Shown one piece after another: positions 6,076 through 29,033 of a DNA stretch of 64,000 bases. The stretch's first letter is position 1; the number at the start of each line of letters is the position of its first letter. The notes beneath the pieces were generated by a model, which ran no database searches, was not told where the DNA came from, and worked only from the letters and a program-made list of their open reading frames with translations. A program made the translations under genes and the position numbers. Source of the stretch: an uncultured Actinomycetes bacterium (lineage in GTDB: Bacteria > Actinomycetota > Actinomycetes > Streptosporangiales > Streptosporangiaceae); the NCBI GenBank assembly GCA_963722275.1, contig CAVRMX010000040.1:50-64049 (forward strand), given 5' to 3'.

Positions 6076-6219
6076 AAAACTCCCGATAACCCTCGAGAAA
6101 ACCGAGGAACCCCGACCCGCTGGTCACGATCCGGTATCGTACGTCCCTCCGGGCATACGCTAACCCGGTAGAATCGGCCGCTGGCCGAACGCGACCCGAC
6201 TGGCCGCCAAAGGGGGCGA

Positions 6220-12446: not shown

Positions 12447-12531
12447 CCACCATGATGAGGGCTTCTGCTGCTGCGTCACCGGAGACGGGAAGATAGCGTA
12501 ACTGAGGGGACCGGCAGGTAAGGAGCTGACG

Positions 12532-14571
12532 ATGACGGCGCTGCGCAGCTACGTGAGCGGGGCATGGACCGAGCCCGCCGACGACGGGCGGCCCGTGCTC
12601 GACGCGGTGACCGGCGAGGAAGTCGCGCGGGTCTCGTCGGCCGGCATCGACCTGGGTGCGGCGCTCGGCTATGGCCGCACCGTCGGCGGGCCGGCGCTGC
12701 GCGAGCTGACCTTCCACCAGCGCGCGGCGCTGCTCAAGTCGCTCGGGCAGCTGCTGCGCGAGCACCGCCAGGAGCTCTACGCCCTGTCCGCCCGCACCGG
12801 CGCGACGCTCGGGGACGCCAAGTTCGATGTCGACGGCGGCATCGGCGTCCTGCTCAGCTACGCCAGCCGGGCCAAGCGCGAGCTGCCGAACGACACGATC
12901 CTGGCCGAGGGCCCCGTCGAGCCGCTCGGCAAGGGCGGGACCTTCGTCGGCCAGCACATCCTCACCCCGCTGCACGGGGTGGCGGTGCAGATCAATGCGT
13001 TCAACTTCCCGGTCTGGGGTCCGCTGGAGAAGTTCGCGCCGGCGTTCATCGCCGGCGTGCCGAGCCTGGTCAAGCCGGCCACCCAGACCGCGTACCTGAC
13101 GGCCCGGCTGGTCGAGCTGATGGTGGATTCCGGGCTGCTGCCGGAAGGCTCGATCCAGCTGGTCTGCGGCAGCGTCGGTGACCTGTTCGATCATCTCGGC
13201 GAGCAGGACCTGGTGTCGTTCACCGGGTCTGCCGCCACCGCCCGGCAGCTGCGCGCCCACCCGGTCATCATCGGGCGGTCGGTACGGTTCAACGCCGAGG
13301 CGGACTCGCTGAACTGCTCGGTCCTCGGTCCCGAGGCGGGCCCGGGCACGCCCGAGTTCGACCTGTACATCCGGCAGCTGGTCAGCGAGATGACGGTGAA
13401 GGCAGGCCAGAAGTGCACCGCGATCCGGCGCGCCCTGGTCCCGGCCGCGCTGGCCGGCCAGGTGGCGGAGGCGGCGCGCGACCGGCTGGCCAAGGTGGTG
13501 GTGGGCAACCCGGCGGAGGAAAGCGTGCGGATGGGCGCGCTGGCCGGCCTTGAGCAGCGCGAGGAGGTCCGCCGTTCGGTCAAGGCGCTGCTGTCGGCGA
13601 GCCGGATCGTGTCCGGTGACCCGGACCGGGTGGACGTCGTCGGAGCCAGCGCCGAGCGGGGCGCGTTCATGGCGCCGCTGCTGCTGCAGGCCGACGACGC
13701 CAGCCGCCCGGAGCCGCATCAGGTAGAGGCGTTCGGGCCGGTCAGCACGATTATCAGCTACCGCGACACCGGCGAGGTGATCGAGCTCGCGGCACGCGGC
13801 CGGGGCAGCCTGGCCGGATCGATCGTCACGGCCGACCCGTCCTTCGCCCGCGACGTGGTCCTCGGCCTGGCGCCGTGGCACGGCCGGCTGCTGGTGCTGG
13901 ACCGCGAGGACGGGGCCGAGTCCACCGGCCACGGGTCGCCGCTGCCCATGCTGGTGCACGGCGGCCCGGGACGGGCCGGCGGCGGCGAGGAGATGGGCGG
14001 CGTCCGCGGCGTGCTGCACCATATGCAGCGCACGGCCGTACAGGCCAGCCCGCGGGTCCTGTCCGCCGTGACCCGCCGCTGGATCCCGGGTGCCGAACGG
14101 ACTACCGATGGCGGCCACCCCTTCCGCAAGCCGCTCACGGAGCTGCGCATCGGCGACACGGTGATCGCCGGGCCGCGTCAGGTCACGCTCGCGGACATCG
14201 AGCACTTCGCCGAGTTCACCGGTGACACCTTCTACGCGCACATGGACGAGGAGGCCGCCCGGGCGAACCCGTTCTTCGACGGCCGGGTGGCCCACGGCTA
14301 CCTCATCCTCTCCTTCGCCGCGGGCCTGTTCGTCCAGCCCGATCCCGGTCCGGTGCTGGCCAACTACGGCCTGGAGAACCTGCGCTTCCTGACCCCGGTC
14401 TACCCGGGCGACGAGCTGACGGTGACGCTCACCTGCAAGCAGATCACCCCGCGCGAGGACGCCGCGCACGGCGAGGTCCGGTGGGACGCCACCGTGACCA
14501 ACCAGGACGGGAAGCCGGTGGCCACTTACGACGTGCTGACCCTGATGGCCAAACAGTGGCCGCCCGCCTAG
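12532..14571 (+). CDS. paaZ: PaaZ-like bifunctional aldehyde dehydrogenase / MaoC-type hydratase
   Basis: 679 aa. N-terminal ALDH domain (FNFPVWGPLEKFAPAFIAGVP, GQKCTAIRR) fused to a C-terminal hot-dog/MaoC domain (IEHFAEFTGDTFYAHMDEEAA). Confidence 0.8.
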   Translation: MTALRSYVSGAWTEPADDGRPVLDAVTGEEVARVSSAGIDLGAALGYGRTVGGPALRELTFHQRAALLKSLGQLLREHRQELYALSARTGATLGDAKFDVDGGIGVLLSYASRAKRELPNDTILAEGPVEPLGKGGTFVGQHILTPLHGVAVQINAFNFPVWGPLEKFAPAFIAGVPSLVKPATQTAYLTARLVELMVDSGLLPEGSIQLVCGSVGDLFDHLGEQDLVSFTGSAATARQLRAHPVIIGRSVRFNAEADSLNCSVLGPEAGPGTPEFDLYIRQLVSEMTVKAGQKCTAIRRALVPAALAGQVAEAARDRLAKVVVGNPAEESVRMGALAGLEQREEVRRSVKALLSASRIVSGDPDRVDVVGASAERGAFMAPLLLQADDASRPEPHQVEAFGPVSTIISYRDTGEVIELAARGRGSLAGSIVTADPSFARDVVLGLAPWHGRLLVLDREDGAESTGHGSPLPMLVHGGPGRAGGGEEMGGVRGVLHHMQRTAVQASPRVLSAVTRRWIPGAERTTDGGHPFRKPLTELRIGDTVIAGPRQVTLADIEHFAEFTGDTFYAHMDEEAARANPFFDGRVAHGYLILSFAAGLFVQPDPGPVLANYGLENLRFLTPVYPGDELTVTLTCKQITPREDAAHGEVRWDATVTNQDGKPVATYDVLTLMAKQWPPA

Positions 14572-14807: not shown

Positions 14808-16491
14808 TTACGGCGCCGGGGGCGCTGGGGCCAGGGCCAGGCCGAGCGCGACCGCGTAGCGGTGGCCGAGTGGTCCGCCCGGGCAAATGCCGCCTACGTC
14901 GCCGCGGCCGACAGCCACGTCATCCGGCAGCGAGCGGGCGAGCACGCCGAGCAGTTCCTCATCGCCGGCCGGGCCGCCGACCACGAGGACCTGCGCCGGG
15001 TCCTGGCCGAGCGTGTGCACCGCCCGGCGGAAGTTCGCCGCCAGCACGGCCTGCTTCAGCCGCAGCCGGATGGCCCGCCATTCCCCCGGGCCGTGGTGCC
15101 GGTCGAATGGCAGCCAGCCGCCCGGGCCTTCCACTGCGAGCATGCCCGCCGCGGAGGCGGGCGCCGGGCACGTCCAGGAAGCCGCGGCGGCCGTCCTCGC
15201 CCTCCCACCGCTGTCCGCCGTCCACCCGCACGCACGGCCCGCGCTTGACCCAGTCGGCAGACGCGCGCGGGATGCCGAGCATCTCCGCGACCGCGGCGGT
15301 GAGTAGATCGCCCGCGCCGGCGGCCACCACGCTGCGCCCCGACCAGATGACGTCGATCGTGCCGGCCCCCAAGTCGACCACGACCGCGTCCTCGCGGCCG
15401 CCCGGCGTGGTGAGGGCGCCGAGCCGGGCCGCAGCCGACTCGCTGACCGGGCTGTGCACCGGGACTTCCAGCAGGTCCCGCAGCATGGAGGCGGTGTCAT
15501 CGTCGCCCGCACGGCCCAGCGAGGCGACCAGGACCGCCCGGCCGGTGCTGCCCAGCCGGGCGGTGGCCGCTTCGGCCGCGGCGGCCAGGTCCACCGCGAA
15601 CAGGTCATCGACCTCGCTGGCCACGGCACCGGTGCCGTACGCGTGTATGGCACCGACCGGCCAGCCCGCTAGCCGCGGGCACGCGGCCCGCAGCGTGAGA
15701 CGGCCCTCCCCCGCGGTCAGCACCCACGGTTCGGCCGGGGTCTCGGGCACGCCGGGCGTCTCTGGCAGCAGGCCAACCACGGCGTTGGCCTGGTCGGCCA
15801 GCATCCGGCTCAGTGCGGCCGCGTCACCCGCCTCGGCCTCGTCCAGCGGATCCAAGCCGAGGCGGGCCCCGAGCGCGACCGGGTCGGCCAGCACCCGCAG
15901 GGTGTGCCCGGGCGGGCGTACCTCGACCGCGAGCAGACGGCACGCGGCGGCCACGTGCGCGTCAACCTGGTCGATGACCGGCAGGCCGCCAGGCAGCCGG
16001 TTCGCCACCAGCACGCCTTCGTCGCCCGCCACCAGCACCGCACCGATCCTGGTCCCGGCCGCCAGCAAGGCCCGCAGCCGCACGGCGGCCTCGTCGTAGC
16101 GCAGGCCGGCCGGGACGATAGCCACCACGTCCGCCGCGCCACCCGGCGCCGCATCACCGAGCCGAAACGGCGGCCCGACGCAGGCCCCGGTCCCGCCAGG
16201 GGTAGGCACGCCCGCGGCCAGCACGCGCAGCCGACCGTTTGGCGGGGCCGCGCCGGGCACGGTCACCACCGAGGTGATGACCGGCCGCAGCGGCGCGATC
16301 CTGACCTCGCCGACGGCGCACCCGAGCTGGCGTTCCATCCGCCGGACCAGCGCGGCCGCGGCACGCAGCGAGCCCGGCGATCCCTTCCGGCCGCGCGTCG
16401 GCACCCGTCCGGCGCCCAGGATCTTGCCGCCGGACACCAGCACGACCTCCGTCGTGGCGTTGCCGACGTCGACCCCGGCGATCACCGTCAC
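14808..16491 (-). pseudogene. diol/glycerol dehydratase reactivase large subunit (DdrA/PduG-like); frame break near 15140-15175
   Basis: The N-terminal roughly 440 aa (MTVIAGVDVGNATTEVVLV..., DLGAGTIDVI) are in ORF 14959..16491. The conserved C-terminus (...VLVVGGPAGDEELLGVLARSLP...GPLGHRYAVALGLAL) is in the frame of ORF 14808..15653. Confidence 0.8.
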
Positions 16492-16503
16492 CCGGCGGCC
16501 TCC

Positions 16504-16866
16504 CTAAGCGGACAGGCCGCGGCGGGCGTAGACCTCGGCCGCCTCCGTGACCAGGGCCGCGCAGCGCGGCAGCCCCCGCCCGGCCAGGGAGGCGGCCAGC
16601 GCGGTGAGCTGGGCGGGCGTGGACCGGCCGGGCCGCAGCGCCTCGTAGACGGCCAGCACCTCGTCGTCAGGCAGCCGGGTCAGCTCGGCCGCGCGGCGCA
16701 GGTTCCCGGCCAGCTGCGGGTTGCCGTGCTGCTCCGCCACCACCGCCTGCCGCTCCAGCGTGTCCGGGTGAATTCGCAGGTCCGCCACGCCGACCTCGCC
16801 CGCCCGCACCGCCTCCACAGTGAGCCCGTCTACGGGTTTGCCCGACAGCGCCCGCACACCAGTCAC
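16504..16866 (-). CDS. pduE: B12-dependent diol dehydratase small (gamma) subunit
   Basis: 120 aa. Colinear with PduE/DhaB3 core motifs (DLRIHPDTLERQAVVAEQHGNPQLAGNLRRAAELTRLPDDEVLAVYEALRPGRST). It lacks the N-terminal extension of BMC-targeted PduE. Confidence 0.8.
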   Translation of the reverse strand: MTGVRALSGKPVDGLTVEAVRAGEVGVADLRIHPDTLERQAVVAEQHGNPQLAGNLRRAAELTRLPDDEVLAVYEALRPGRSTPAQLTALAASLAGRGLPRCAALVTEAAEVYARRGLSA

Positions 16867-16897
16867 CTCAGCACCATCCAGTCCTGTCAGTCAACGG

Positions 16898-16952
16898 CAA
16901 CGATGGAGCATTGATGTCGTTCCAGCGACAACGATGGAGCATTGATGTCGTT
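16898..16952. repeat. direct repeat, 2 x 24 bp (caacgatggagcattgatgtcgtt), 31-bp period
   Basis: Identical copies at 16898-16921 and 16929-16952. Each copy has imperfect inverted ends (AACGAT...GTCGTT). Confidence 0.9.
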
Positions 16953-16962
16953 GGCGCAGGAC

Positions 16963-17062
16963 GCAGGCCGGGCGCGAGGGGCAGGCCGGGCGCGAGGGGC
17001 AGGCTGGGCGCGGGGGGCAGGCTGGGCGCGGGGCGGGGCTGGGCGGGAGGCCTGGGCGGGGG
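16963..17062. repeat. 18-bp tandem repeat array (gcaggccgggcgcgaggg), 4 clear units plus degenerate ones
   Basis: Units at 16963, 16981, 16999 and 17017, decaying toward 17062. Confidence 0.9.
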
Positions 17063-17067
17063 CCGAG

Positions 17068-17602
17068 TCACGTTAGTCCCTCCAGTGACAGCTCTTCGGG
17101 GGATGCCCCGGGGACCATGCGGCGGCGCTCCAGTTCCATCAGGGCGATCACGGTGGTGTGGTAGCGGGCCTCGATGGCCTCGTCGGAGTACGGGTTGCGG
17201 GCCGGGTCGGGCGTGCCGCCCTTGGCGTGCCGCGCGGCGTTGGCGCCGAGCAGCCGGTAGAGCTCGGGGGTGACCGAGGGCGCCACCGAGTACAGCTCCA
17301 GGTTCGCCAGCGGGGCCAGGTCGCGGCGATGGATCAGCGCGGTGCCCTTGCCCTGCAGCCCGATTCCGATCCCCAGCCGGCCAGCCTGGCCGCGGCCAGG
17401 CCGATCCGGCCCAGGTCGACGCTGGCGTTGAAGCGGACGACCCGTCCGGCGCAGCCTTCCTCCTCCAGGCCCGCCAGCATCTCCCGCAGCACGTCCGTCA
17501 CCGCCAGGCCGGACAGGCACCGCCACACGTCCCGGCCGACGGCGGGCGAGACGCCGATGACGACGTCGCGGGGGTCCTGCCCGGGCCGGCCGGGCCGCTC
17601 AC
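17068..17602 (-). pseudogene. pduD: B12-dependent diol dehydratase medium (beta) subunit; at least two frame problems
   Basis: DPRDVVIGVSPAVG...LREMLAGLEEEGCAGRVVRFNAS is in the frame of ORF 17334..17864. GIGIGLQGKGTALIHRRDLAPLANLELYSVAP...ARYHTTVIALME is in ORF 17068..17526. The frame switches at about 17375-17380. No start codon lies in frame upstream of the first fragment. A GTGA junction at 17599-17602 fits only if another indel exists near 17576-17580. Confidence 0.8.
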
Positions 17603-19276
17603 GCCGAGCAACGGCACCGCGAACCGCGCCTGCTCGGCCCGCAGGTCGGCGACCCCGCGGGCCTGGCGGATGGCGTCGATCTCGGCCTGCCGGGACGGCG
17701 AGGGTTCGTAGCCGGTGCCCGGGCCCGCGTAGTCGTTCGGGTCGGTGACCAGGGACAGCACGCGCAACTGCTCGTCGAAGATGGCGGACGTCTGCAGGTA
17801 GTCGCCGGACAGCCTGGCCCGGGCGAAGGCCATGGTCCGTTCGGCCTCGTGGGAGTAGCCGCACTCGTCCAGGGCGGCCACGATGTCCACCACGGTCAGC
17901 CCGCGCTGGCGGATGGCGTGCGCCGCGCCCAGCACGGCCAGGGTGTCGGTCTCCCCCAGGTCCTTCGACCCGGCCGCGTCCACCGCCAGCTCCACGTGCT
18001 CGTCGGTGAAGTCCGCCAGGCCCAGGTGGGCGTAGACCGCGCGGCAGGCCTGGGCCGCCTCGCGGCGCAGCTCACCGATCCGGGCGGGGTCAACCGTCCG
18101 CAGGCCGCCGTCGACGCCCCAGTCCCGCTGCATGGCCAGGAAGTCGTCGATGTCCTCGGCGTTGAAGTTGCTCGGGCCGAACATGTTGTCGTAGCGCTGG
18201 ATCGACCCGAACCCGCTGAACGCGAAGTCCGAGCCCGCCAGCACGATCGGCAGCGTGCGGGAGGTCCGGCGCATGTCAGACTCGCTCATCAGCGCGTCAT
18301 TGCCCGAGCAGGACTCCAGGTTGCGCATCATCACCATGACGTTCTCGGCCATCAGCTCGCGCAGCCCGCCCGGCACCGCGGCGGCCACGCTGGCACCGTC
18401 GATCCCGCCGTTCTGCACGCCCTGGGCGCCGATGGCCCGGGCCAGCGCCACGCAGCGCGCCTCCAGGTAGAGCATCGACTGGCCCTGCGCGCCGGCCATC
18501 AGGACCTCGGCGCCGGCCCCCGAGGACACCCGCATCTTCATGCCGCGGGAGGCGTAAGCGGAGGTGAGGAAGGCCTTCGACCACGGGGTATCGTCGCCGT
18601 CTGTGAACACCTGCTCGGTGCCGTACAGCGAGACGGTCTCGGCGTAGGAGGTCAGCCCGCGCATGCCGAGCTCGAGCTCCATGGCCTCCTCGACGGAGCA
18701 CTGGATGAGCACGCCGTCGGCGCCGAACGCCGCCCCGATCAGGCAGGCCACCGCGTTGCTCGGCGCGTCGCCGAGCACCGGCACGGTGGTCTCGACCTCG
18801 CGGAACCCGAACGCCGCCGCGGTGGCCGCGTCGGCGGCGAGCAGCAGCGGGTCGTCGAGCCGGTTGGTGACGTGCGCCTGGTTGCTTGGCGTGCGGCGGG
18901 CGCGCAGCTTGGTCATCGCCATGACCAGTTCGGGCGGGCGGAGCTGGGCCAGCACGCGGGCCAGCTTGGCCGGGGTGGCGCCGGCGCTCAGCCTGACGAT
19001 CTCGTGCCGCGGCACGGCGGGGTCGACCAGGAGGCGGGCGAACGCCACGTCGGACAGGGCCATCGCCTCGCCCGCGGCGCTCAGGTCGAGGCCGTGCCGG
19101 GCGATGTAGGTGTCGATCGAGTCGAACTCCGCCTCGGGCACGCCGTCCAGCTCGGTCACCCGGCCGCCGGCCACGGCCAGGCTGGCCGCCGGGTCGTTCG
19201 GCGAGCGGAGCGCGGCCAGCCCGAGTCCGGGGTCCTCGATGGCGAAACCGTCCAGGTTGACCCGCTGCCGGTCCAT
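17498..19276 (-). CDS. pduC: B12-dependent diol/glycerol dehydratase large (alpha) subunit
   Basis: Colinear with PduC/DhaB1 (SPNDPAASL, TELDG, QCSVEEAMELELGMRG, SGNDALMSESD, NDYAGPGTGY). Homology ends about 17650. The last roughly 50 codons of the literal ORF overlap the beta-subunit homology in another frame, so the true 3' end is uncertain. Confidence 0.85.
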   Translation of the reverse strand: MDRQRVNLDGFAIEDPGLGLAALRSPNDPAASLAVAGGRVTELDGVPEAEFDSIDTYIARHGLDLSAAGEAMALSDVAFARLLVDPAVPRHEIVRLSAGATPAKLARVLAQLRPPELVMAMTKLRARRTPSNQAHVTNRLDDPLLLAADAATAAAFGFREVETTVPVLGDAPSNAVACLIGAAFGADGVLIQCSVEEAMELELGMRGLTSYAETVSLYGTEQVFTDGDDTPWSKAFLTSAYASRGMKMRVSSGAGAEVLMAGAQGQSMLYLEARCVALARAIGAQGVQNGGIDGASVAAAVPGGLRELMAENVMVMMRNLESCSGNDALMSESDMRRTSRTLPIVLAGSDFAFSGFGSIQRYDNMFGPSNFNAEDIDDFLAMQRDWGVDGGLRTVDPARIGELRREAAQACRAVYAHLGLADFTDEHVELAVDAAGSKDLGETDTLAVLGAAHAIRQRGLTVVDIVAALDECGYSHEAERTMAFARARLSGDYLQTSAIFDEQLRVLSLVTDPNDYAGPGTGYEPSPSRQAEIDAIRQARGVADLRAEQARFAVPLLGVSGPAGPGRTPATSSSASRPPSAGTCGGACPAWR

Positions 19277-19308
19277 GAACCGTACTCTGCCGACTGGCGT
19301 GTTGGCGC

Positions 19309-19414
19309 GGGGGGGCGACCCCCCGGGATCCCCCCGCTGTTCCTGCCGGGGGGACCCATCCCCCCGGACCCCCTTGGGAGGGGCTGCCCGCCCCCCCGTT
19401 CCCCCCCGGCCCCC
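19309..19414. repeat. G6/C6-hairpin dispersed repeat, copy B (intergenic, between the GntR gene and the pduC-like gene)
   Basis: Core ccggggggacccatccccccggacccccttggga at 19346-19379. It is flanked by further GGGGGGG-N-CCCCCC modules and fills most of the 141-bp spacer. Confidence 0.85.
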
Positions 19415-19417
19415 TAG

Positions 19418-20206
19418 TCATACCGCCGCCTGGGGGTGCAGCTCGACGACCCGGGCCCGGCCGGGGACGGCGCGGGACGTGCCGCCCTCGGTGCGGACGA
19501 CGATCCGGGTCCGGTCGGCCCGGAACAGGTCGCGGGAGAACTCGATCGGCTCGCCGTCGGGGTCGCTGGTCGTCCTGGTGATGGCCATCAGCGGCGCTCC
19601 TGGGTCCACGTCGAGGATGGCCGCCTCGTCCGCCGAGGCGAGGACCACCTCGATCCGCTCCACCGCGCCGGTGGGCTCGGCGCCGAAGTGCTCCTCGAGC
19701 AGCTCGTAGACCGAACCCCCGAGCGGCAGCTCAAGCAGGCCGGGGAAGCGCCGGGCCGGGAACCTGGCGTGCTCCAGGGAGAACGGGCTGCCGTCCGCGA
19801 GCCTGATCCGCACCAGGTCGATGACCAGGTCGCCGGGCCGGGCATGCAGCGCCTGCGCGGTAATGTCGTCCGCCTCGGCCAGCCGGGCGCTGAGCACCCG
19901 GGTCCCGGCCACCACGCCCTGGCTGCGCAGCAGCGCGGGCACGCCGACGATCCGGGACAGGTCCCGCTCGATCTTGCCCTTGGCCACGAAGGTGCCGCCG
20001 CCGCGGCCAGGCACCCGGCGGACCACGCCGCCGTCGGCGAGAACCGCGAGCGCCTGGCGCAGCGTCGCCCGGCTGACCCCGAACTCCGCCGCGAGCGCCC
20101 GCTCGGCGCCCAGCCGCTGCCCGGGGCGCAGCCGGCCGCTGCCGATCTGCTCGGCCAGGGCGCGCCTGACCTCCTCCGGCGTCCGTGCTGGCGGACTCTC
20201 GGTCAC
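19418..20206 (-). CDS. GntR-family (HutC/UTRA subfamily) transcriptional regulator
   Basis: GTG 20206 overlaps the SDR stop (GTGA). Winged-helix region [43 protein letters not shown], then a UTRA-like effector domain. The upstream part of track ORF 19418..20614 is in-frame read-through over the SDR gene. Confidence 0.85.
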
Positions 20207-21006
20207 GCGGAACCCGCCGCCATCGCTTCGGGTGACTCGGGCAGCACCTGGCCGCCGTCCACCACGATCGTCTGGCCGGTGATGTAGGCGGCCTCGTCGG
20301 TGGCCAGGAACAGGGCGGCGTAGCCGATCTCGTCGACGGTGCCAAGCCGGCGCATCGGGATCGCGGCGGTCATCCCGCTCGCGTAGTTCGAGCCGAGGTC
20401 GGCCAGGCCTTCGGTGGCGATGTTGCCCGGCAGGACCGCGTTGACGGTGATGGCCTTGGGCGCCAGCTCGATCGCGGCGGTCCGCATGAAGCCGAGCTGG
20501 CCGGCCTTGCTCGCGCCGTAGTGCGTCCAGCCGGGGAAGCCGGTGATCGGCCCGGTGATGGACGAGGTGAGGATGACCCGGCCGCGGCCCGAGGCCGCCA
20601 GGGCAGGCAGGCACGCCTGGACGCTGAGCACCGTGCCCTTCAGGTTGGTGCCGAACACCTGGTCAAGATCGGATTCGGTCAGGTCCTCGAGGCGGGCCTC
20701 GGGGAAGATCCCGGCGTTGGCGCAGAGCACGTCGATGCCGCCGAGGCGCTCCCGGGCGATCGCGGCCATCCGGCGGCAGTCCTCCCGGCTGGCCACGTCG
20801 GCCAGCACGAACGAGACCTCACCGGGCGGGCCGGCCGCGGCGGCCAGGGCGTGCAGCTCCTCGGCGGCGGCCCGGGCGGTGTCCGAGTCCCGCCCGGTGA
20901 TCAGCACCTTCGCGCCGCTGCGGGCGAACACGCTGGCGATCCCCTTGCCGATCCCGCGGGTGCCGCCGGTCACCACCACGGCACGGCCCGCGATCGATGT
21001 GAACAT
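20203..21006 (-). CDS. short-chain dehydrogenase/reductase (candidate 1-amino-2-propanol/aminoacetone dehydrogenase)
   Basis: 267 aa. [12 protein letters not shown] cofactor motif and a Y-x3-K catalytic motif (YGASKAG). The specific role is inferred from the RMM-type locus context. Confidence 0.8.
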
Positions 21007-21018
21007 GGCAGGTCCCTC

Positions 21019-22026
21019 TCAGTGAGTGCTTAGGTACGACTCCGCAAGGTCACAGCTGCCCTGCGTGTATCCGGCGCCGAGTTCGGCGGCGATGTCCACG
21101 GCCCGGTGCGAGCCGATCCACGCGACCAGCAGCAGCCGCCGGAACATGATGAACGTCCAGATCTCCGCCTGGTCCTCGGCGGACAGCCGGCCGGCCTTCC
21201 GGTAGCCCTCGAGCCAGCTGTCCACCAGGGCGGGGACGCCGGGCTCGTGCTCGAAGAAGCTGACCGATGTGCCCAGGTCGTACAGGTACCAGCTGAATCC
21301 GGAGTCGTCGAAGTCGATGACGCTGACCGACCCGTCGTGCACCAGCAGGTTGGCCAGCCGGGTGTCCGCGTGCACCAGGCCGTACCGGGCCGGGCCTGAG
21401 CCGAACGCCCGCAGCCGGGCGCGGAGCACGTCGTCCAGCCGGGACAGGACCCGGTGCTCGGACGGCCCGACGCCGATGCCGTCCTGCCAGCGGCCCCAGC
21501 GGGCCTGGCGGCCGAACGCCGACGCGTAGTCCCAGTGGAACCGGGTGAACCAGGGCGGCCGGGACCATTCCCTGGCGTGCCGGTGCATCCGCGCGGTGAT
21601 CTCGCCCAGCTCGGCGAAATGGGTAGCCGCCAGCGCCGGTTCCCCGCCCGGTTCGGTGCCCGGCAGGAACTCGAACCGCACGCAGTACCGCTCCGCCGTG
21701 CTGCCCCGCTCCCGGACGGTGACCACCCGCCGCCCGTCGGCGGCCGGCACCACCCGCGGCGTGCGCACGCCGGCCTCCGCGCGCAGCGCGTCCATCCAGG
21801 CCAGCTCCGACGCGATCTCCTGCTCGGTGTGGTAGCCCAGCCGGTGCACGCGGAGCACCGTGGGCCCGGTCTCGGCGCCGGACACCAGGAAGGTCGCGTT
21901 CTCCGAGACGTTGAGCAGCTCGACGGACGCCCCGGGGTGACCGCCGTAGGCGGCCAGCGCGTCCTGCGCGCAGCCGCGGACCCGGTCCATGACGTCGCCG
22001 CCGGCCGACAGGTCGTGCTCGCTCAT
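21019..22026 (-). CDS. aminoglycoside-phosphotransferase-fold kinase (candidate 1-amino-2-propanol kinase)
   Basis: 335 aa. APH catalytic loop LVHADTRLANLLV and IDFDDSGFSWYLYDL. The substrate is inferred from the locus type. Confidence 0.8.
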   Translation of the reverse strand: MSEHDLSAGGDVMDRVRGCAQDALAAYGGHPGASVELLNVSENATFLVSGAETGPTVLRVHRLGYHTEQEIASELAWMDALRAEAGVRTPRVVPAADGRRVVTVRERGSTAERYCVRFEFLPGTEPGGEPALAATHFAELGEITARMHRHAREWSRPPWFTRFHWDYASAFGRQARWGRWQDGIGVGPSEHRVLSRLDDVLRARLRAFGSGPARYGLVHADTRLANLLVHDGSVSVIDFDDSGFSWYLYDLGTSVSFFEHEPGVPALVDSWLEGYRKAGRLSAEDQAEIWTFIMFRRLLLVAWIGSHRAVDIAAELGAGYTQGSCDLAESYLSTH

Positions 22027-22028
22027 GG

Positions 22029-22697
22029 CTACCCCGCGTGCTCCCGGCCGGCCACGGCGGTGAGCACCTCGAGGATCTCGCGCTGCGCGCGCCGGACCTC
22101 GGCGGTCGGCCCGCTCAGGTAGATCCGCCCGGCCGCGCCGATCATCGACACGTCGACCAGCGTAACGCCCGGCGCGGCCCGTTCGGCCTCGTTGGCCGCG
22201 ACCGCCGCGAACAGGGCCGGGGTGACCTCGCTGACGCCCAGCGTGTCCCCGGGGATGATCATGGAGCCGGAGCGGTTCCTGTTGATGATGATCGCGTGCG
22301 CGTCGGTCACGTCCTCGATCACGTCGGAGAACAGGATCCGCGGCCTCAGCTGGTCCTTCTCGTCGGCGCCCAGCCCGTCCAGGATCGCCTGCCCGGCCCG
22401 GCGCACGTCGCCGGAGTCCCGCCCGTGCACCTCGAGCACGCCGAACTGCCGCTCGACGAACACGATGCCCGGCTCGACCGCGGGCACCGCGCGCAGCGCC
22501 AGGTCGGTGACCCGCTCGATGGCCAGCGCGGGCGCCACCTCGACGATGAGCGCGTGCTGCCCGGCGAACGGCGGGTAGCCGCGGGCCCGGGTCGGGGTGC
22601 CCAGGTACGCGGCGAACTGCGGCTGCAGGTCGCGCACCAGGAGGTAGACCCGCAGCTCAGCCGCTCGCGGGTCGCCCGGGTCTGCGGCGCTAGTCAC
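22029..22697 (-). CDS. BMC shell protein with two BMC-like domains (tandem/BMC-T-like), paralogue 1
   Basis: 222 aa. The second half shows the BMC pattern ([41 protein letters not shown]). The first half is a divergent copy ([28 protein letters not shown]). Clear paralogue of 23669..24271. Confidence 0.75.
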
Positions 22698-22971
22698 CGC
22701 TGATCTTGAAGTGCCTGGCCAGGTCGGGGTGCGGGCGCGGGATCACGTGGACCGAGACGAGCTCGCCCACGGTCAACGCGGTCTCGGCGCCGGCCTCGGT
22801 GGCCGCCTTCACCGCGCCGACGTCCCCGACGATCGTCACGGACACCAGCCCGTCGCCGACCTCCTCGCGGCCGACGATCGTCACGTTCGCCGCCTTGACC
22901 ATGGCGTCTCCCGCCGCGAGCGCGGCCACGTACCCCTTGGTCTCGATCAGTCCGATCGCGTTATCCGCCAT
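22690..22971 (-). CDS. BMC-H hexameric shell protein (PduA/EutM-like)
   Basis: 93 aa. Canonical BMC domain sequence [63 protein letters not shown]. Confidence 0.95.
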
Positions 22972-22974
22972 CGT

Positions 22975-23241
22975 TCACTCTCCTTCCTGCTGGGTCCCCG
23001 GGTCCGGGTCGATAGAGCCGATGATCAGGGCGTCGACGGGCGGCGGCTTGCCGGCGAACCAGGCCGCCGCGACCGAGCCCTGGGTGATGAGCACGCGCTC
23101 GCCCACCCCGCTGCCGAGCACGTCGAAGGCGATCAGCCGCTGTCCGGTGCCCTCGGCCTCCACCTCGAGGAAGGCGCCGTTGGGCAATTCGGCCAGCCGG
23201 CGCGTGGCCCAGACGCTCCCGATCACCGTTGCGGTCAGCAT
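22975..23241 (-). CDS. BMC-P pentameric vertex protein (EutN/CcmL family)
   Basis: 88 aa. MLTATVIGSVWATRRL...AFDVLGSGVGERVLITQGSVAA...VDALIIGSID matches the EutN/CcmL pattern. Confidence 0.9.
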   Translation of the reverse strand: MLTATVIGSVWATRRLAELPNGAFLEVEAEGTGQRLIAFDVLGSGVGERVLITQGSVAAAWFAGKPPPVDALIIGSIDPDPGTQQEGE

Positions 23242-23668
23242 CAGCGCTCCTTCTCGATCTGCACGCCGCTCGCCCTGGCCCGGTCCCTGGCCAGCGGGGT
23301 GAGCACGGCACCGCGGCCGAGCACCAGCCGCTGGCCGGCCCGCGCCGCTGCTTTGATCACCGCTTCGGTCACCGCGCCGCGCTCGATGCGGCGCACCAGC
23401 GCGGATTCCCCGGCCCGTTCGGCCCCATGGGCGGCACCGGCCGGGACCGGCGCGGCGGCTGCGGCGGCGGATGGGGCGGCCAGCCTGAACCGTTTCCGGC
23501 CGGACCGGAGCTCCTCACGCTGATCCGGGTCAAGGTCCAGGAGGCGTGTCACGAACGCCGCCAGGCCTTCGTCGGTTGAAAGGTTAACCGTTTCGGTACC
23601 GGTCAGGCCGTTAGGCAGCACGTCCCGGAGGACCTCGCGAACCAGTGCGCGGAGCTCGTCGAGGTCGC

Positions 23669-23672
<4 letters not shown>
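23241..23672 (-). CDS. 143-aa BMC-locus protein: encapsulation-peptide-like N-terminus, Ala/Pro linker, small C-terminal domain of unknown function
   Basis: ATG 23672 overlaps the upstream stop (ATGA). N-terminus MSDLDELRALVREVLRDVL resembles the PduD targeting helix. Ala/Pro linker AAPSAAAAAAPVPAGAA. C-terminal domain ...AVTEAVIKAAARAGQRLVLGRGAVLTPLARDRARASGVQIE. Confidence 0.6.
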
Positions 23673-24271
<599 letters not shown>

Positions 24272-24273
24272 GG

Positions 24274-25881
24274 TCAGCCTCCGGCCAGCTGGGATAGCTC
24301 TTCGAGGATGAGCCTGCGGATCTCCTCGCGCAGCGCCGAGGTATCGGGCCCAGAACCATTAGGTTCCGAACGGCCCGGGCCGCCTGCCCGTTCTCCGCCG
24401 CCTGCGGGCGGCGGGCGGTCGCCCCGCTGGTTGGACGCCACCGGGTACGGGGGTACCGGGCCGGCCGGCGCCTGCCAGGGCACCAGCCCGGCGAAGTCGC
24501 CGAACGGCTCGGCCGGGTCGCGGTTGTAGGCCAGCCGCGTCCACTGCACCAGGTGGCTGGGGTGCAGGTTCTCCGCCACCGAGGACCGGCCGAAGAACCC
24601 GGTGCCGATCGTCATCGTGGGGGCCAGGTTGGTCTGGTAGCCCGCGCTGCCCAGGCTGCTGCCCACGTTGACGGCGACCCGCAGGACCTCGACCGCGGCC
24701 CCGTACTCCATGATCACCTGCGGGTCGGTGCTGTGGATGGCCGCCGAGTGGCCGCGGCCGGACAGCCGCAGCACGGCCCGCGCGGCGCCGATCCCGCGCC
24801 GGGCGGACGGCACCCGGACCAGGCCGAGCACCGGGCAGAGCTTCTCGTGGGCCAGCGGTTCCTCCGGCATCACCAGGTCGAACGGCGCGAGCAGGACACG
24901 GGTGCGGTTCGGTACCCGCAGGCCCGCCTCGGCCGCGATCCAGCTCGCGTCCTTGCCGACGAAGCGGATGTCGAACCGCCCGCCTGGGAACAGCATCGCG
25001 GATACGCGGTCCCGCTCGCCCGCCTCGAGCAGGTAGGCGCCGGCCTGCTTCAGCTGCCGCAGCAGCGGGGTCGCCGCCTGCTCGGCGACGATCAGCACCG
25101 ACTCGCTGGTGCACAGGACCGAGTTGTCGAAGCTCTTGCTGTCCACGATCCGCCTGGCCGCCTTGGCCAGGTCGGCGGTCGCGTCCACCAGCACCGGCAC
25201 GTTGCCCGGCCCGACGCCGAGGGCGGGCGTGCCCGAGCTGTAGGCGGCGCGCACCACGGGAACGCCGCCGGTCGCGACGATGACGCTGGTGCGCTCGTCG
25301 GTCATCAGCGCGTCGATCAGCGGCACCGACGGCTCGTCCACCACCTGGATGACGCCGTCGGGGGCACCCGCCGCGACGGCCGCGGCGCCGAGGGTGCGCG
25401 CGGCGTCGGCGCAGACCTCCTTGGCCAGCGGGTGCGGGCTGAGCACGACCACGCTGCGGGTCATCAGCGCGAGCAGGCACTTGAAGAACACCGTGGCGAC
25501 CGGGTTGGTCGACGGGGTAAGCGCCAGCACCACGCCCGCCGGGCGCGGCACCTCGACGATCTTGGCTTCGGCGTCGATCCGCGGCGTCACGTAGTCGTGG
25601 CCCGCGTAATAGTCCACGATCCCGGTGCTGCAGGCGATGTTCTTGAGCACCTTGTGCTCGGCCACGCCGAACCCGGTCTCGCGCACCGCCCAGTCCGCGT
25701 ACTCGCGGGCCTTGGCCGCGCCGGCCGCGGCGGCGGCGCGCACGATCGCGTCCACTCCAGCCTTGTCGTACCGGGCGAAGGCGCGCGCGGCCCACTCCGC
25801 CCGCTGCAGCATGGCCCGCGCCCGCGGCACCCCCGCCGGGTCGGTGAGCAGCTCGGCCACGCTGATCCGCGCCTCGGTCAC
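24274..25881 (-). CDS. CoA-acylating aldehyde dehydrogenase (PduP/EutE class) with a C-terminal encapsulation peptide
   Basis: GTG 25881 overlaps the upstream stop (GTGA). Catalytic-Cys motif SFDNSVLCTSES. C-terminal Pro/Gly linker, then the amphipathic helix SALREEIRRLILEELSQL. Confidence 0.9.
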   Translation of the reverse strand: MTEARISVAELLTDPAGVPRARAMLQRAEWAARAFARYDKAGVDAIVRAAAAAGAAKAREYADWAVRETGFGVAEHKVLKNIACSTGIVDYYAGHDYVTPRIDAEAKIVEVPRPAGVVLALTPSTNPVATVFFKCLLALMTRSVVVLSPHPLAKEVCADAARTLGAAAVAAGAPDGVIQVVDEPSVPLIDALMTDERTSVIVATGGVPVVRAAYSSGTPALGVGPGNVPVLVDATADLAKAARRIVDSKSFDNSVLCTSESVLIVAEQAATPLLRQLKQAGAYLLEAGERDRVSAMLFPGGRFDIRFVGKDASWIAAEAGLRVPNRTRVLLAPFDLVMPEEPLAHEKLCPVLGLVRVPSARRGIGAARAVLRLSGRGHSAAIHSTDPQVIMEYGAAVEVLRVAVNVGSSLGSAGYQTNLAPTMTIGTGFFGRSSVAENLHPSHLVQWTRLAYNRDPAEPFGDFAGLVPWQAPAGPVPPYPVASNQRGDRPPPAGGGERAGGPGRSEPNGSGPDTSALREEIRRLILEELSQLAGG

Positions 25882-27302
25882 CGCCGTCCCCCCTTGGCCG
25901 CGTCGTCCCTGGCCGTGGCGATGGCCACCTCGGTCCGCTCGAGCAGTTCCTCGCAGAGCGCCGGGGTGAGCAGGATGCCCGGCTTGTACTGCAGCACGCG
26001 GGAGTCGAGGGTGGAGAAGATCGCCCACACCCCGTTCTCGTAGAGCCGCTTCATGACGAACTTGGCGCCCTGCGGATGGCCGAACTCCAGGCCCATGACC
26101 AGCCCGTCCTGCCGGATGCCGGTGAACCAGTCCGGGTACTGGGCCTGGATCTGCGCCAGCCCGCCGGTGAACATCCCCGCGATGTAGTGCACCATCGACC
26201 TGACCTCGGGCCGGCAGGTGATCTCCAGCGTCTTGAGCGCCGTTACGCAGCCGAGCTCGGCACCGCCGAACGTGGACATGTGCGCGAAGCCGTCCTCGGT
26301 CAGCCAGCCCGCGGCGGCCTCCGTGGCCAGCACCACGCTGACCGGGTACATGCCGCCGGAGATGCCCTTTCCTGAGACCAGGATGTCCGGGTTGACGCCA
26401 TGCTTGCTGATGGCCCACAGCTCGCCGGTGCGCATCAGCCCGGTCTGCACCTCGTCGGCGATGTAGAGCGCGCCGTAGCGCTCACACAGCCGCTTGACCC
26501 CGGCCAGGTAGCCGGGCGCGGGCAGCGGGAAGCCGTAGGTGGCCGGGATCGTCTCCATGATCACCGCGGCCACGTCCCGGCCGCGCAGCGCCGCCTCCAT
26601 CGCGTCCAGGTCGTTGAACGGCACGTGGGTGAACTCGTCAGGACGGTCGGACAGGAACAGGGTCGCGAACCGCTCGTCGCCGGTGGCCACGGCCAGCCCG
26701 GTGTGCCCGTGGTAGGCCTTGGCCACCGAGACGATGCCGCGCTTCTTCGTAGCGTGACGCGCGCTCTTCAGCGCGATGTCGATCGCTTCCCCGCCACCGC
26801 TGCCGTACATCACCTTTGTTAGCCGCGTTGCCTCGGGGGGAACGATCCCCCCAGACCCCCCTGCTCCTTTTCCGGGGGGACCCATCCCCCCGGACCCCCC
26901 TTGGGAGAGACCCATCCTCCCAGACCCCCCCTGGGAGGCCCCTTGCGGGGCCCCCGATGCCGGTGCGGCCGCCGCCGCCGTGGCGTTGACCAGGGCTTCG
27001 GCGAGGGCGGTGCGGGCCAGGCTCGGGAAGTGATGGTTGCCGATGTCGAAGCGCTGCATGGCCGCGGTCACGGCGGCGGCCACCTCGGGGTTGCGGTGGC
27101 CGAGGTTGTAGGTGCCGCCGTTGAGGTGGACGTCGATGAGGCGCTTGCCCTCGACGTCGTAGATGAAGTAGCCCTCGCGGCGGTCGATGACCAGCGGGAC
27201 CCCGGAGTCGATCCAGAACTGCGTCTTGTCCGGGTTCCAGAACTGCTTGGACTTCGCCAGCATGTCCTGCTTCGAGGCGAATGAGATCAGTTCCTCGGTC
27301 AC
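25878..27302 (-). CDS. class-III aminotransferase-fold PLP enzyme (candidate 1-amino-2-propanol O-phosphate phospho-lyase) carrying an insertion of about 45 aa
   Basis: Aminotran_3 motifs (HLNGGTYNLGHRNPEV, ADEVQTGLMRTGELWA, SGKGISGGMYP). Start chosen at GTG 27302 (GGAGG 6 nt upstream). GTG 27317 and the track start 27437 are alternatives. The insert comes from repeat copy C. Confidence 0.85.
   Translation of the reverse strand: MTEELISFASKQDMLAKSKQFWNPDKTQFWIDSGVPLVIDRREGYFIYDVEGKRLIDVHLNGGTYNLGHRNPEVAAAVTAAMQRFDIGNHHFPSLARTALAEALVNATAAAAAPASGAPQGASQGGSGRMGLSQGGSGGMGPPGKGAGGSGGIVPPEATRLTKVMYGSGGGEAIDIALKSARHATKKRGIVSVAKAYHGHTGLAVATGDERFATLFLSDRPDEFTHVPFNDLDAMEAALRGRDVAAVIMETIPATYGFPLPAPGYLAGVKRLCERYGALYIADEVQTGLMRTGELWAISKHGVNPDILVSGKGISGGMYPVSVVLATEAAAGWLTEDGFAHMSTFGGAELGCVTALKTLEITCRPEVRSMVHYIAGMFTGGLAQIQAQYPDWFTGIRQDGLVMGLEFGHPQGAKFVMKRLYENGVWAIFSTLDSRVLQYKPGILLTPALCEELLERTEVAIATARDDAAKGGRR
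26835..26955. repeat. G6/C6-hairpin dispersed repeat, copy C (inside the aminotransferase-fold gene, in frame)
   Basis: Core ccggggggacccatccccccggaccccccttggga at 26872-26906, plus related modules (ggggggaacgatcccccc, gagacccatcctcccagacccccc). On the minus strand it translates as APQGASQGGSGRMGLSQGGSGGMGPPGKGAGGSGGIVPP. Confidence 0.85.
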
Positions 27303-27485
27303 CGCGACCTCCGTCACCGTTCGCGGGCGCCGCAACCATATGGCTCGTTCGGCTAAACCAAAGAAGTACCGCCCTGACCGTTTGATGTCAAGAGGTTCTG
27401 TTTCACTCTGATTAACTGAACCAGAACTCTTGATCATGGTTCCCGCAGGCTGTTACGCTCCCCGCAAATGCGCCGGAGGTGTACC
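27303..27485. promoter_or_regulatory. divergent promoter/operator region between the BMC operon and the permease gene
   Basis: GC content is clearly lower than the flanks. Palindrome CCATATGG at 27336-27343. Inverted repeat GAACCA(27418-23)-N13-TGGTTC(27437-42). GGTTCTG (27394-400) pairs with CAGAAC (27422-27). Protein binding is not demonstrated. Confidence 0.4.
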
Positions 27486-29033
27486 ATGGCACATCCCCAG
27501 GTCCCCGAAGTCCCCCGCCTGCCCGTGCGGCCGCCTGCCGAGGACTTTGACGTCTCGCAGCGCTCGGACGTAGCCAAGCTCCGCAAGGGCGCGATCGGGC
27601 TCGGCGGCGTCCTGTTCCTGACCGTGACCGGGTCGGCCCCGATCTCGGCCATGCTGTTCAATGTCCCGATCATGGTGGGCTTCGGACAGGGCGTCGGCGC
27701 CCCGGCCGCCTTCGAGTTCGCGGCGGTCGTGCTCGTCGTGTTCGCGGTCGGCTACGTCGCAATGGCCAGGAAGAAGACCACGGCGGGCGGCTTCTACTCC
27801 TACATCAGTCACGGGCTCGGCCGGGAACTGGGCATCGGCACGGGCTACGCCTCGGTGGTCGCGTACTCCGTGTTCGAAGCGTCCCTGGCCGGCGGTTTCG
27901 CCTACTTCCTCAGCCTGAAGCTGAACCAGTTCGGGGTGACCATCGCCTGGCCCTGGCTGGCCCTGGCCATGGTGGTGATTATCAGCATCCTGACCTACTT
28001 CGACGTCCGGATCTCCAGCATGGTGCTCGCGATCGGGCTGATCAGCGAGATCGTCATCCTGCTCATCTTCGACGTCTTCCTGTTCGCCCGCGGGCACGTG
28101 ACCGCGGCCCCGCTCAACCCCGTGAACGCCTTCAAGAGCTTCCCGGCGCAGGGTACGCTCGCAGCCGGCGCGATCGGCATCGGCCTGTTCTTCGCCTTCT
28201 GGTCCTGGGTCGGCTTCGAGATGGCACCGAACTACGGCGAGGAATCCCGCGACCCCAAGCGGATCGTCCCCCGCGCCCTGTACATCTCGGTGATCGGGCT
28301 CGGCGTCTTCTACACGGTCACGGCCTGGGCCTCGCTCGCCGGGTACCCGACCACAAGGGCCGCCGCCGCCGTGTCGCAACACAACGCGGCCCAGTACTTC
28401 CTCACCCCGGCCGGCCACTATGCCGGGCAATGGGTGGCCTCGGTGATGAGCTACCTGATCATCACCGGCTCGTTCGCCTGCGGCATGGCCTTCCACAACA
28501 CCACCGCGCGGTACATGTACTCACTCGGCCGTGAGGGCCTGGCCCCGCGGGCGCTCGGCAAGACCCACCCCAAGTGGAAGAGCCCGCACATCGCGTCCCT
28601 CACCCAGTCGGTCGTCGCCGCCATCATCATCGGGCTTTTCGCCATCTTCACCGGCAGCAACAACCCCAACACGCAGGCCTACATCCAGCTCTACGGCCTG
28701 ATGGCGGTGATGGGCGTGATCATCATCCTGTCGGTGCAGGCGGTGGTCTCGCTCAGCGTGCTGGTCTACTACGAGCGCTTCCACCGGGACGAGGCGCACT
28801 GGTGGCGGACCAGGCTGGCCCCGCTGCTCTCGTTCATCTCCCAGGCCTTCGTGGTGTACCTGCTGTTCACGAACATCGATTTCCTGGGCGCCGGCAGCTA
28901 CAGCTACGCGAACTGGCTGGGTCCGATCGACGCCGTGGTGGTCCTGGCCGGCGTCGGCACCGCCTTCTATTTCAAGAAATACAAGCCCGCCAAGTACGAG
29001 CAGGCCGGCCGCCTGATCAACGAGGGTCTCTGA
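27486..29033 (+). CDS. APC-family amino acid/amine permease
   Basis: ATG 27486 with GGAGG 7 nt upstream. About 12 hydrophobic segments. APC-type N-terminal motif GAIGLGGVLFLTVTGSAPISAM. Confidence 0.85.
   Translation: MAHPQVPEVPRLPVRPPAEDFDVSQRSDVAKLRKGAIGLGGVLFLTVTGSAPISAMLFNVPIMVGFGQGVGAPAAFEFAAVVLVVFAVGYVAMARKKTTAGGFYSYISHGLGRELGIGTGYASVVAYSVFEASLAGGFAYFLSLKLNQFGVTIAWPWLALAMVVIISILTYFDVRISSMVLAIGLISEIVILLIFDVFLFARGHVTAAPLNPVNAFKSFPAQGTLAAGAIGIGLFFAFWSWVGFEMAPNYGEESRDPKRIVPRALYISVIGLGVFYTVTAWASLAGYPTTRAAAAVSQHNAAQYFLTPAGHYAGQWVASVMSYLIITGSFACGMAFHNTTARYMYSLGREGLAPRALGKTHPKWKSPHIASLTQSVVAAIIIGLFAIFTGSNNPNTQAYIQLYGLMAVMGVIIILSVQAVVSLSVLVYYERFHRDEAHWWRTRLAPLLSFISQAFVVYLLFTNIDFLGAGSYSYANWLGPIDAVVVLAGVGTAFYFKKYKPAKYEQAGRLINEGL

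Follow-up and report, generated by a model that had tools for sequence, protein, structure and literature searches.

Gene content of the locus

The 64,000-nucleotide stretch of contig CAVRMX010000040.1 (GenBank assembly GCA_963722275.1), hereafter called the window, belongs to an uncultured soil actinobacterium of the Streptosporangiales, near the Streptosporangiaceae and Trebonia metagenome-assembled genomes (MAGs), and has a G+C content of about 72%. Window positions 14808-29033 were analysed by Pfam, NCBIfam and PDB sequence searches and were found to contain the genes of an RMM-type bacterial microcompartment (BMC) followed, on the same strand, by the genes of a B12-dependent diol dehydratase and the large subunit of its reactivase (Table 1). 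An earlier note on this DNA had claimed such a junction between an RMM-type set and a dehydratase cluster, and the family and structure matches bear it out.

The window kinase is homologous to PDB entry 6EF6, the (S)-1-amino-2-propanol kinase of Mycobacterium smegmatis. Since the kinase, the short-chain dehydrogenase/reductase (SDR), the BMC-H protein and a BMC-T protein all match M. smegmatis RMM proteins (E-values from 1.9e-40 to about 1e-99), the membership of the locus in the RMM/AAUM type is secure. The aminotransferase-fold gene, whose homology to relatives begins near V46, at 27302, encodes the presumed amino-alcohol-phosphate phospho-lyase. The aldehyde dehydrogenase carries a Pro/Gly-rich linker and then a C-terminal amphipathic helix (tail ...DTSALREEIRRLILEELSQLAGG) that resembles an encapsulation peptide and is probably a targeting signal. 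The dehydratase subunits matched NCBIfam subfamily models in addition to the Pfam families.

The genes are packed end to end, or with overlaps of 1-4 nt, everywhere but at 19277-19417 and 16867-17067, which are both filled with repeats and are the only sizeable gaps, as had been noticed before. The fourteen consecutive genes that were originally counted become 13 in the ancestral state, the alpha and beta subunits being one gene. The locus has, as claimed, a single BMC-type aldehyde dehydrogenase and a single shell gene set; the neighbouring PaaZ also has an Aldedh domain. The reported lack of PduL, PduO, PduQ and a reactivase small subunit was confirmed by a domain scan of open reading frames (ORFs) and by tblastn: no PTAC/PduL, adenosyltransferase or Fe-ADH domain was present in 30 further large window ORFs, and a PduH-type reactivase small subunit gave no tblastn match. 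No B12 recycling genes (adenosyltransferase, reductase) were found at the locus, and no second shell gene in the rest of the window.

Table 1. Genes and inserted elements of the locus, listed from the permease to the reactivase.
Feature	Window position	Strand	Matches and remarks
GabP-like amino-acid permease	27468-29033	+	Pfam AA_permease_2 / AA_permease; divergent; position kept in relatives
Class-III aminotransferase-fold enzyme, operon gene 1	25878-27302	-	Pfam Aminotran_3, matched in two stretches
In-frame 55-codon insertion in the aminotransferase-fold gene	26823-26987	-	G/C-rich repeat element, in a loop
BMC-type aldehyde dehydrogenase	24274-25881	-	Pfam Aldedh; acylating activity putative
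BMC-T, double-stacking, MSM0275 homolog	23669-24271	-	PDB 5L39 (E 3.5e-91); NCBIfam CcmP-like
143-aa protein (p143)	23241-23672	-	No family match; motif LRALVREVLRDVL
BMC-P vertex protein	22975-23241	-	Pfam EutN_CcmL
BMC-H hexamer protein, MSM0272 homolog	22690-22971	-	Pfam BMC; PDB 5L38 (E 1.9e-40)
Second BMC-T, double-stacking	22029-22697	-	NCBIfam CcmP-like (E 3.7e-59); paralog of BMC-T 23669-24271
APH-fold kinase	21019-22026	-	Pfam APH; PDB 6EF6 (E 3.7e-95, residues 14-334)
SDR	20203-21006	-	Pfam adh_short; PDB 6CI8/6CI9 (E ~1e-99; M. smegmatis RMM amino-propanol dehydrogenase)
GntR/UTRA regulator	19418-20206	-	Pfam GntR + UTRA; GTG start overlaps SDR stop
Repeat insertion	19277-19417	-	Between ancestral ATG 19419-19421 (overlaps GntR stop) and Met at 19276
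Fused alpha-beta B12 diol/glycerol-family dehydratase	17068-19276	-	Pfam Dehydratase_LU PF02286 and Dehydratase_MU PF02288; three frames
Inserted spacer	16867-17067	-	18-nt tandem repeat x4.9 (16963-17050); two copies of 24-nt unit AACGACATCAATGCTCCATCGTTG
Dehydratase small (gamma) subunit	16504-16866	-	Pfam Dehydratase_SU PF02287; no N-terminal extension
Reactivase large subunit, DdrA/PduG-like	14808-16491	-	Pfam DDR + DDR_swiveling, in two frames

Conservation of the locus in relatives

Eighty species-representative loci, mostly from Streptosporangiaceae and Trebonia-like soil MAGs, were retrieved by alignment of the kinase (individual loci are cited below by L numbers), and the 57 with enough flanking sequence were evaluated by tblastn synteny. 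Order and strand were exactly as in the window in 27 of the 57, namely RbpA, the divergent permease, the aminotransferase-fold enzyme, the aldehyde dehydrogenase, BMC-T, p143, BMC-P, BMC-H, the second BMC-T, kinase, SDR, GntR, dehydratase and reactivase, with PaaZ convergent. The linkage of the two clusters is thus kept in relatives, and the case of unlinked clusters, which would have told against it, was not what the comparison gave. Amino-acid identity to relatives was 84-95% for the large-subunit part of the dehydratase as compared to 70-92% for the kinase.

Five loci consist of the aminotransferase-fold enzyme, kinase, SDR, GntR and dehydratase, without the aldehyde dehydrogenase, p143 or any shell gene. 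One of them is that of an isolate, Trebonia kvetii 15TR583 (L055 8532-16664), which has a compact cluster of aminotransferase-fold enzyme, kinase, SDR, GntR, fused dehydratase, gamma subunit and reactivase in a different genomic neighbourhood, with the lyase abutting the kinase. The comparison suggests that the aldehyde dehydrogenase, the shell genes and p143 form a six-gene cassette that has been inserted or deleted between the lyase and the kinase. Given that the five shell-less loci keep the enzymes, the regulator and the dehydratase, the dehydratase is linked to the amino-alcohol enzymes and not to the shell.

The dehydratase lies downstream of the permease on the other strand, in the divergent arm, in four loci (three Microbispora species and one uncultured MAG), and two further Microbispora loci are RMM loci with no dehydratase within reach. 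Sixteen species (L005, L018, L021, L030, L036 and 11 others, around position 10001) have the kinase alone, with or without the SDR, between RbpA and PaaZ, which indicates that the locus is often eroded in the clade, and three loci are partial; since all loci were found via the kinase, these kinase-only and partial classes are subject to ascertainment.

Subunit fusion, gene junctions and inserted repeats

The large- and medium-subunit matches lie in one frame, as a single ORF of about 740-770 aa, in every relative, and PF02286 and PF02288 always occurred together in more than 120 homolog clusters. Alpha-beta fusions of natural origin have been described from both M. smegmatis and Mesorhizobium loti (Liu et al. 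2010, cited by PMC7674605). That the fusion is natural explains why the "beta" subunit is without an N-terminal extension.

The stop codon of GntR and the start codon of the dehydratase overlap (ATGA/GTGA) in at least 16 of 41 loci, and the stop of the beta (medium-subunit) part overlaps the gamma start in 16 of 39. From these junctions we infer that the ancestral state was probably one transcription unit of 13 genes with stop/start overlaps that included the GntR-dehydratase and beta-gamma pairs. At the very junctions where the window has spacers, relatives have overlapping stop and start codons; the spacers are derived insertions and not ancestral boundaries. They had been taken for gaps in the operon; they are instead lineage-specific, and the one at 19277-19417 falls within what was ancestrally the 5' end of the dehydratase gene.

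This 5' insertion holds a G/C-rich element of about 105 nt, by which the ancestral ATG is put out of frame. It was compared at the nucleotide level with L001, L002, L009 and L012, which are without the insertion, and with L006, which has the element; the element is in frame in L006 and out of frame in the window. The dehydratase protein of relatives without the insertion starts M..PVGRIRF-MDRQRV. The second insertion, at 16867-17067, is flanked by GTGACT and sits at a former stop/start overlap. The insertion in the aminotransferase-fold gene is absent from L001, L009, L055 and L065, and is also found in L003 and L029, that of L003 being a matching element. The repeat of this element recurs in the window at 19346 and 5163. 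More broadly, a palindromic G/C-rich repeat (core GGGGGGATGGGTCCCCCC) is dispersed over window positions 5163-5187, 19290-19415 and 26823-26987, and occurs elsewhere at L003 5624, L006 12682, L014 3176, L016 2448 and L018 945.

A promoter and terminator scan of 14.4-29.3 kb gave no promoter-like sites, and terminator-like sites occurred at chance level with none in the spacers. Predicted RNA folding of the two spacers was not more stable than that of shuffled sequences (z -0.33 and +0.16). An Rfam scan found no cobalamin riboswitch; the sole riboswitch was a distant one of the glycine type, an aptamer at 61465-61557 (minus strand; RF00504, 62.7 bits) that lies upstream of the gene for glycine dehydrogenase.

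A divergent block around the dehydratase module

A near-identical assembly, L087 (ENA contig_14751), was found by a 99% match of p143. Of the 375 mismatches between it and the window 363 are confined to 14,847-20,790, where the divergence is about 6%, and only 12 were found outside this block in about 14 kb, so that the flanks differ by at most about 0.1%. The block has sharp borders and comprises the 3' end of the SDR gene, GntR and the entire dehydratase and reactivase module. The dN/dS ratios between the window and L087 ranged from 0.09 to 0.50 in the block and from 0.09 to 0.38 for the alleles of the dehydratase module. Judged from this pattern, the block looks like an allelic replacement tract and the segment appears to recombine as a unit of its own; going by how far each is from L081, the window allele looks native and the L087 allele imported.

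Both L081 and L087 are ENA long contigs, and between them they have split permease, PaaZ, aldehyde dehydrogenase, kinase, GntR and dehydratase genes (in L081 the permease and PaaZ are split).

Frame breaks in the dehydratase module

The three frame breaks that had been noticed in the dehydratase cluster are real features of this sequence when it is compared with six relatives: the dehydratase fusion has 1-nt deletions at about 17584-17589 and at 17374, and the reactivase has a 1-nt insertion at about 15165-15169. Repair of the three indels restores a 736-aa fusion and a 560-aa reactivase. At conserved sites the window dehydratase genes showed no surplus of private substitutions (2 across about 777 sites, the fragment DDMa excluded); in DDMa 6 of 47 sites were private, which was provisionally attributed to read-through past the second deletion.

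Programmed frameshifting was rejected since the frames of relatives are uninterrupted at all three sites, and old pseudogenisation was rejected given that private substitutions at conserved sites were not in excess. Sequencing error throughout the window was likewise unsupported, the other large ORFs examined being full-length family matches in which no frame break was noticed. The near-identical L087 has none of the three indels, and the breaks are therefore either private to the strain and very recent or errors of the consensus. The suggestion that the dehydratase is decaying was accordingly not established, as the indels are private to this assembly and constraint is not relaxed. Three private 1-nt indels and a displaced start thus leave a very recent inactivation and an error in the MAG consensus about evenly balanced.

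If the second possibility holds, the breaks and the out-of-frame start would be consensus errors of a long-read metagenome and the module would be intact in the organism, a reading to which we give an even chance. The sister assemblies L081 and L087 are full of broken genes, and in L087 the aldehyde dehydrogenase and kinase genes are put out of frame by indels where the sequence is otherwise 100% identical to the window, which suggests that indel errors occur in this kind of assembly. The absence of the window indels from L087 and the scarcity of private substitutions outside DDMa point the same way, as does the position of the indels inside the sole block with about 6% difference between co-occurring strains, where consensus polishing tends to fail. 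On the other hand, all three indels fall within 4.5 kb, whereas the large ORFs examined in the other approximately 59 kb gave full-length family matches and no break was noticed in them (PGK, TIM, GAPDH, UvrC, GcvP and an MMPL protein among them). Moreover, two of the three indels are not changes in homopolymer length, and partial loss of the locus is common in the clade, as seen from the 16 kinase-only remnants and three partial loci.

Targeting of the dehydratase and the role of p143

Whether or not a locus has a shell, its gamma subunit, reactivase and fusion have the same N-termini, and the sole helix motif detected in the dehydratase belongs to the beta core, as its first helix, and is common to the Klebsiella enzyme. 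This N-terminus comparison upholds the observation that the dehydratase has no terminal targeting extension. The accompanying statement that the beta and gamma subunits begin at their conserved cores is correct for gamma in all loci but not for beta, which has no free start, being fused. Most likely, as far as these termini tell, the dehydratase is untargeted and would be cytosolic or loosely associated with the shell.

The 143-aa protein had been put forward as a possible recruiter of the dehydratase. Even at permissive thresholds it matched nothing in Pfam, NCBIfam or the PDB, and of its more than 3000 homologs none is named; its N-terminal helix (LRALVREVLRDVL) resembles an encapsulation peptide. 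It is missing along with the shell and the aldehyde dehydrogenase in the shell-less loci that keep the dehydratase, and present in those RMM loci of Microbispora where no dehydratase lies within reach. Since p143 follows the shell and the aldehyde dehydrogenase and not the dehydratase across loci, nothing ties it to dehydratase recruitment, and that proposal was not sustained. By its distribution, p143 is a putative companion of the shell or of the aldehyde dehydrogenase, not a dehydratase adaptor.

Active site of the dehydratase

Alignment to the Klebsiella enzymes showed that the equivalents of the Ca2+-binding and catalytic residues Gln141, His143, Glu170, Glu221, Gln296, Asp335 and Ser362 are all conserved. 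The numbering is that of the K. oxytoca enzyme. Two residues of the pocket are replaced, Ser301 by Asp (18398-18400) and Gln336 by Ala (18293-18295), and all 120 close homologs, as well as Microbispora, have this Asp301/Ala336 pair. Among representatives at 50% identity, the large subunits fall into a canonical class with QNGS(I/V)SC and NDQ and a second class with QNGGIDG and ND(A/T/S/N). Ser301 faces the C3 hydroxyl of glycerol, and the substitutions S301A and Q336A change the kinetics of the enzyme (PMC7674605).

Five distant genes of the Asp301 type were examined for context. One is convergent with RMM-like shell genes, one has a class-III aminotransferase and an SDR fragment nearby, one has a decarboxylase dependent on pyridoxal phosphate (PLP) inside its operon, and two are without amine-related neighbours. 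A distant Asp301-type operon at L083 10001-17147 encodes a small subunit fused to a Peptidase_S58 domain and a PLP-dependent decarboxylase, besides the large subunit of a reactivase and, as a separate protein of 98 aa, its small subunit.

Chromosomal surroundings

The rest of the window is ordinary chromosome, with cysI/cysH-like genes, PaaZ, RbpA, tpi-pgk-gap, whiA, uvrC and gcvP. A PLP-dependent decarboxylase and the PaaZ-type aldehyde dehydrogenase/MaoC hydratase (10968-14571, plus strand) run convergently towards the end of the dehydratase module, PaaZ being part of the conserved backbone beside the locus. Further away, a 968-aa ORF at 6172-9078 (plus strand) combines CBM48 and alpha-amylase domains (GlgX-like) with a C-terminal RibD_C domain, and is either an odd fusion or two genes merged through a lost stop codon.

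Proposed working of the locus and alternative explanations

With moderate confidence we read the locus as an RMM/AAUM operon for aminoacetone or 1-amino-2-propanol that ends 3' in a cytosolic or loosely associated B12 diol-dehydratase feeder module. The divergent permease would import the amino alcohol or aminoacetone, and the SDR, the kinase and the aminotransferase-fold phospho-lyase would convert it to propionaldehyde. This aldehyde would be consumed by the aldehyde dehydrogenase, held by its C-terminal targeting helix within a shell of one BMC-H, one BMC-P and two BMC-T proteins. Co-transcription of the RMM and dehydratase genes is suggested by their arrangement, and the co-expressed dehydratase would turn a vicinal diol into an aldehyde, most simply 1,2-propanediol into propionaldehyde. 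It is plausible, by analogy with the M. smegmatis pathway, that propionaldehyde is the shared intermediate.

Several points weigh against this reading. The route depends on the conversion by kinase and lyase to propionaldehyde that Mallette and Kimber reportedly described for M. smegmatis in 2018. The dehydratase cannot be made in the window as assembled, and the shell-less loci are also without a dedicated aldehyde dehydrogenase. Asp301 and Ala336 are at both of the positions that face the substrate C3 in the Klebsiella enzyme, and the substrate is thus uncertain. The dehydratase may carry an internal or non-canonical signal, for example in the conserved alpha-beta linker '...DLRAEQA.xAVPLL...'. 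Finally, an alternative published reconstruction of the pathway exists (PMC6620236).

Alternatively, the compartment could be bifunctional, with the dehydratase encapsulated together with the phospho-lyase, and one shell and one aldehyde dehydrogenase would handle the propionaldehyde derived from both 1,2-propanediol and 1-amino-2-propanol. The single, translationally coupled operon, the one BMC-type aldehyde dehydrogenase and one shell set at the locus, and the linkage of dehydratase and RMM genes in three layouts are what such a compartment would lead one to expect, and bifunctionality was allowed for RMM2 by Axen 2014 (PMC4207490). We nevertheless consider it unlikely, given that no dehydratase protein has a terminal extension, that fusion leaves beta without the free N-terminus at which PduD has its signal, that the same dehydratase occurs unchanged in five loci without a shell, and that the locus has no adenosyltransferase or reductase genes for B12 recycling.

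The residues of the pocket raise another alternative, in which the Asp301/Ala336 dehydratase acts on an amine-bearing diol or amino alcohol and is an integral step in the breakdown of amino alcohols, not a parallel entry route. QNGGIDG with a residue other than Gln at 336 is invariant in the 120 close homologs and in Microbispora and marks a broad class apart from the canonical one; the kinetic effects of S301A and Q336A and the contact of Ser301 with the glycerol C3 hydroxyl (PMC7674605) give these positions weight, the subfamily adjoins amino-alcohol genes whether a shell is present or not, and one distant member has a PLP decarboxylase within its operon. Against this, all residues that bind Ca2+ or catalyse the reaction of a vicinal diol are conserved, there is no established candidate for the natural substrate, two of the five distant contexts have no amine-related neighbours, and the argument extrapolates from two residues only, and we regard it as quite improbable. 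It would be equally doubtful to treat the QNGGIDG dehydratases as a distinct B12 eliminase subfamily for an amine-bearing substrate that has co-evolved with the kinase, phospho-lyase, SDR and GntR, the aldehyde dehydrogenase and shell genes being a self-contained, optional cassette placed between the lyase and the kinase. If it were true, the RMM compartment of this clade would serve an undescribed two-enzyme amino-alcohol pathway.

That the dehydratase cluster lies beside the RMM genes by chance and is functionally unconnected to them, as the 2021 catalogue holds for RMM2, agrees with the finding of PDU signature enzymes near just 4 of 32 RMM2 loci (Sutter 2021 supplement), with the two Microbispora RMM loci that have no dehydratase within reach and with the recombination of the block as a separate unit, but is very improbable in view of the same-strand synteny in 27 species, the stop/start overlaps, the retention of the dehydratase in shell-less derivatives and the two further layouts.

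Comparison with known systems and significance

The locus that we read as an RMM operon with a dehydratase feeder module has in common with RMM1/AAUM of M. smegmatis mc2 155 (Mallette and Kimber 2017, 2018; Sutter 2021) the aminotransferase-fold enzyme, the APH kinase, the SDR, the BMC-type aldehyde dehydrogenase, a regulator and a permease. The shell inventory of one BMC-H, one BMC-P and two double-stacking BMC-T proteins is also the same according to the Sutter 2021 supplement, and neither locus has a PTAC or an alcohol dehydrogenase. Unlike RMM1, the operon in the window continues beyond GntR with a B12 dehydratase and reactivase module of four domains, shows no hydrolase genes, and has an in-frame repeat insertion in the aminotransferase-fold gene.

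The earlier note suggested that an RMM subtype with dehydratase genes may already be catalogued, and this is indeed so: RMM2 ('RMM2/PDU2') was defined as an RMM locus with diol dehydratase genes and no hydrolases, the dehydratase being on the opposite strand and judged not to be used by the compartment (Axen 2014, PMC4207490). The window locus agrees with this definition in having a dehydratase within an RMM locus and in lacking hydrolases, but its dehydratase is co-directional and was ancestrally coupled in translation to GntR. The opposite-strand layout was seen in the Microbispora-type loci and in one distant metagenomic locus. The Sutter 2021 text redefines RMM2 as mostly proteobacterial, with a gene order unlike that of RMM1, while the host here is an actinobacterium, and its supplement judges the PDU enzymes near RMM2 loci unlikely to be important.

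The catalogues thus already hold the association as RMM2, but not the same-strand arrangement. The co-directional layout with stop/start overlaps in a large uncultured clade is absent from the Axen 2014 and Sutter 2021 texts, and so are the shell-less derivatives with a dehydratase, the Asp301/Ala336 pair and the recombination unit running from the SDR 3' end through GntR to the dehydratase.

The dehydratase and the reactivase large subunit are homologous to those of the Pdu system (PduCDE-GH of Salmonella and Citrobacter), in which, as proposed for the window, a PduP-like dehydrogenase in a BMC shell consumes an aldehyde intermediate. The window differs in that there are no N-terminal peptides of the PduD/PduE type, alpha and beta are fused, PduH, PduL, PduQ, PduO and PduS are absent from the window, the shell is of the RMM type, and Asp301/Ala336 replace Ser301/Gln336. 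The fused 'alpha-gamma heterodimer' dehydratases of M. smegmatis and Mesorhizobium loti and the engineered Klebsiella fusions (PDB 9VII) share the beta-homologous C-terminus with it, but neither an association with an RMM operon nor the Asp301/Ala336 signature is described for them in the available part of PMC7674605.

The role of the dehydratase beside RMM loci has been debated since 2014, and it was from the opposite-strand layout that Axen et al. argued against co-expression, while the 2021 catalogue set the association aside for its rarity. A clade of dozens of species in which the dehydratase is translationally coupled to the operon, with shell-less derivatives that retain it, makes the question testable, whether the answer is a dual-entry organelle, a cytosolic feeder or an amine-related specificity. 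A natural alpha-beta fused Asp301/Ala336 dehydratase is available for enzymology, and Trebonia kvetii, together with Microbispora species for the divergent layout, offers cultured handles on the system.

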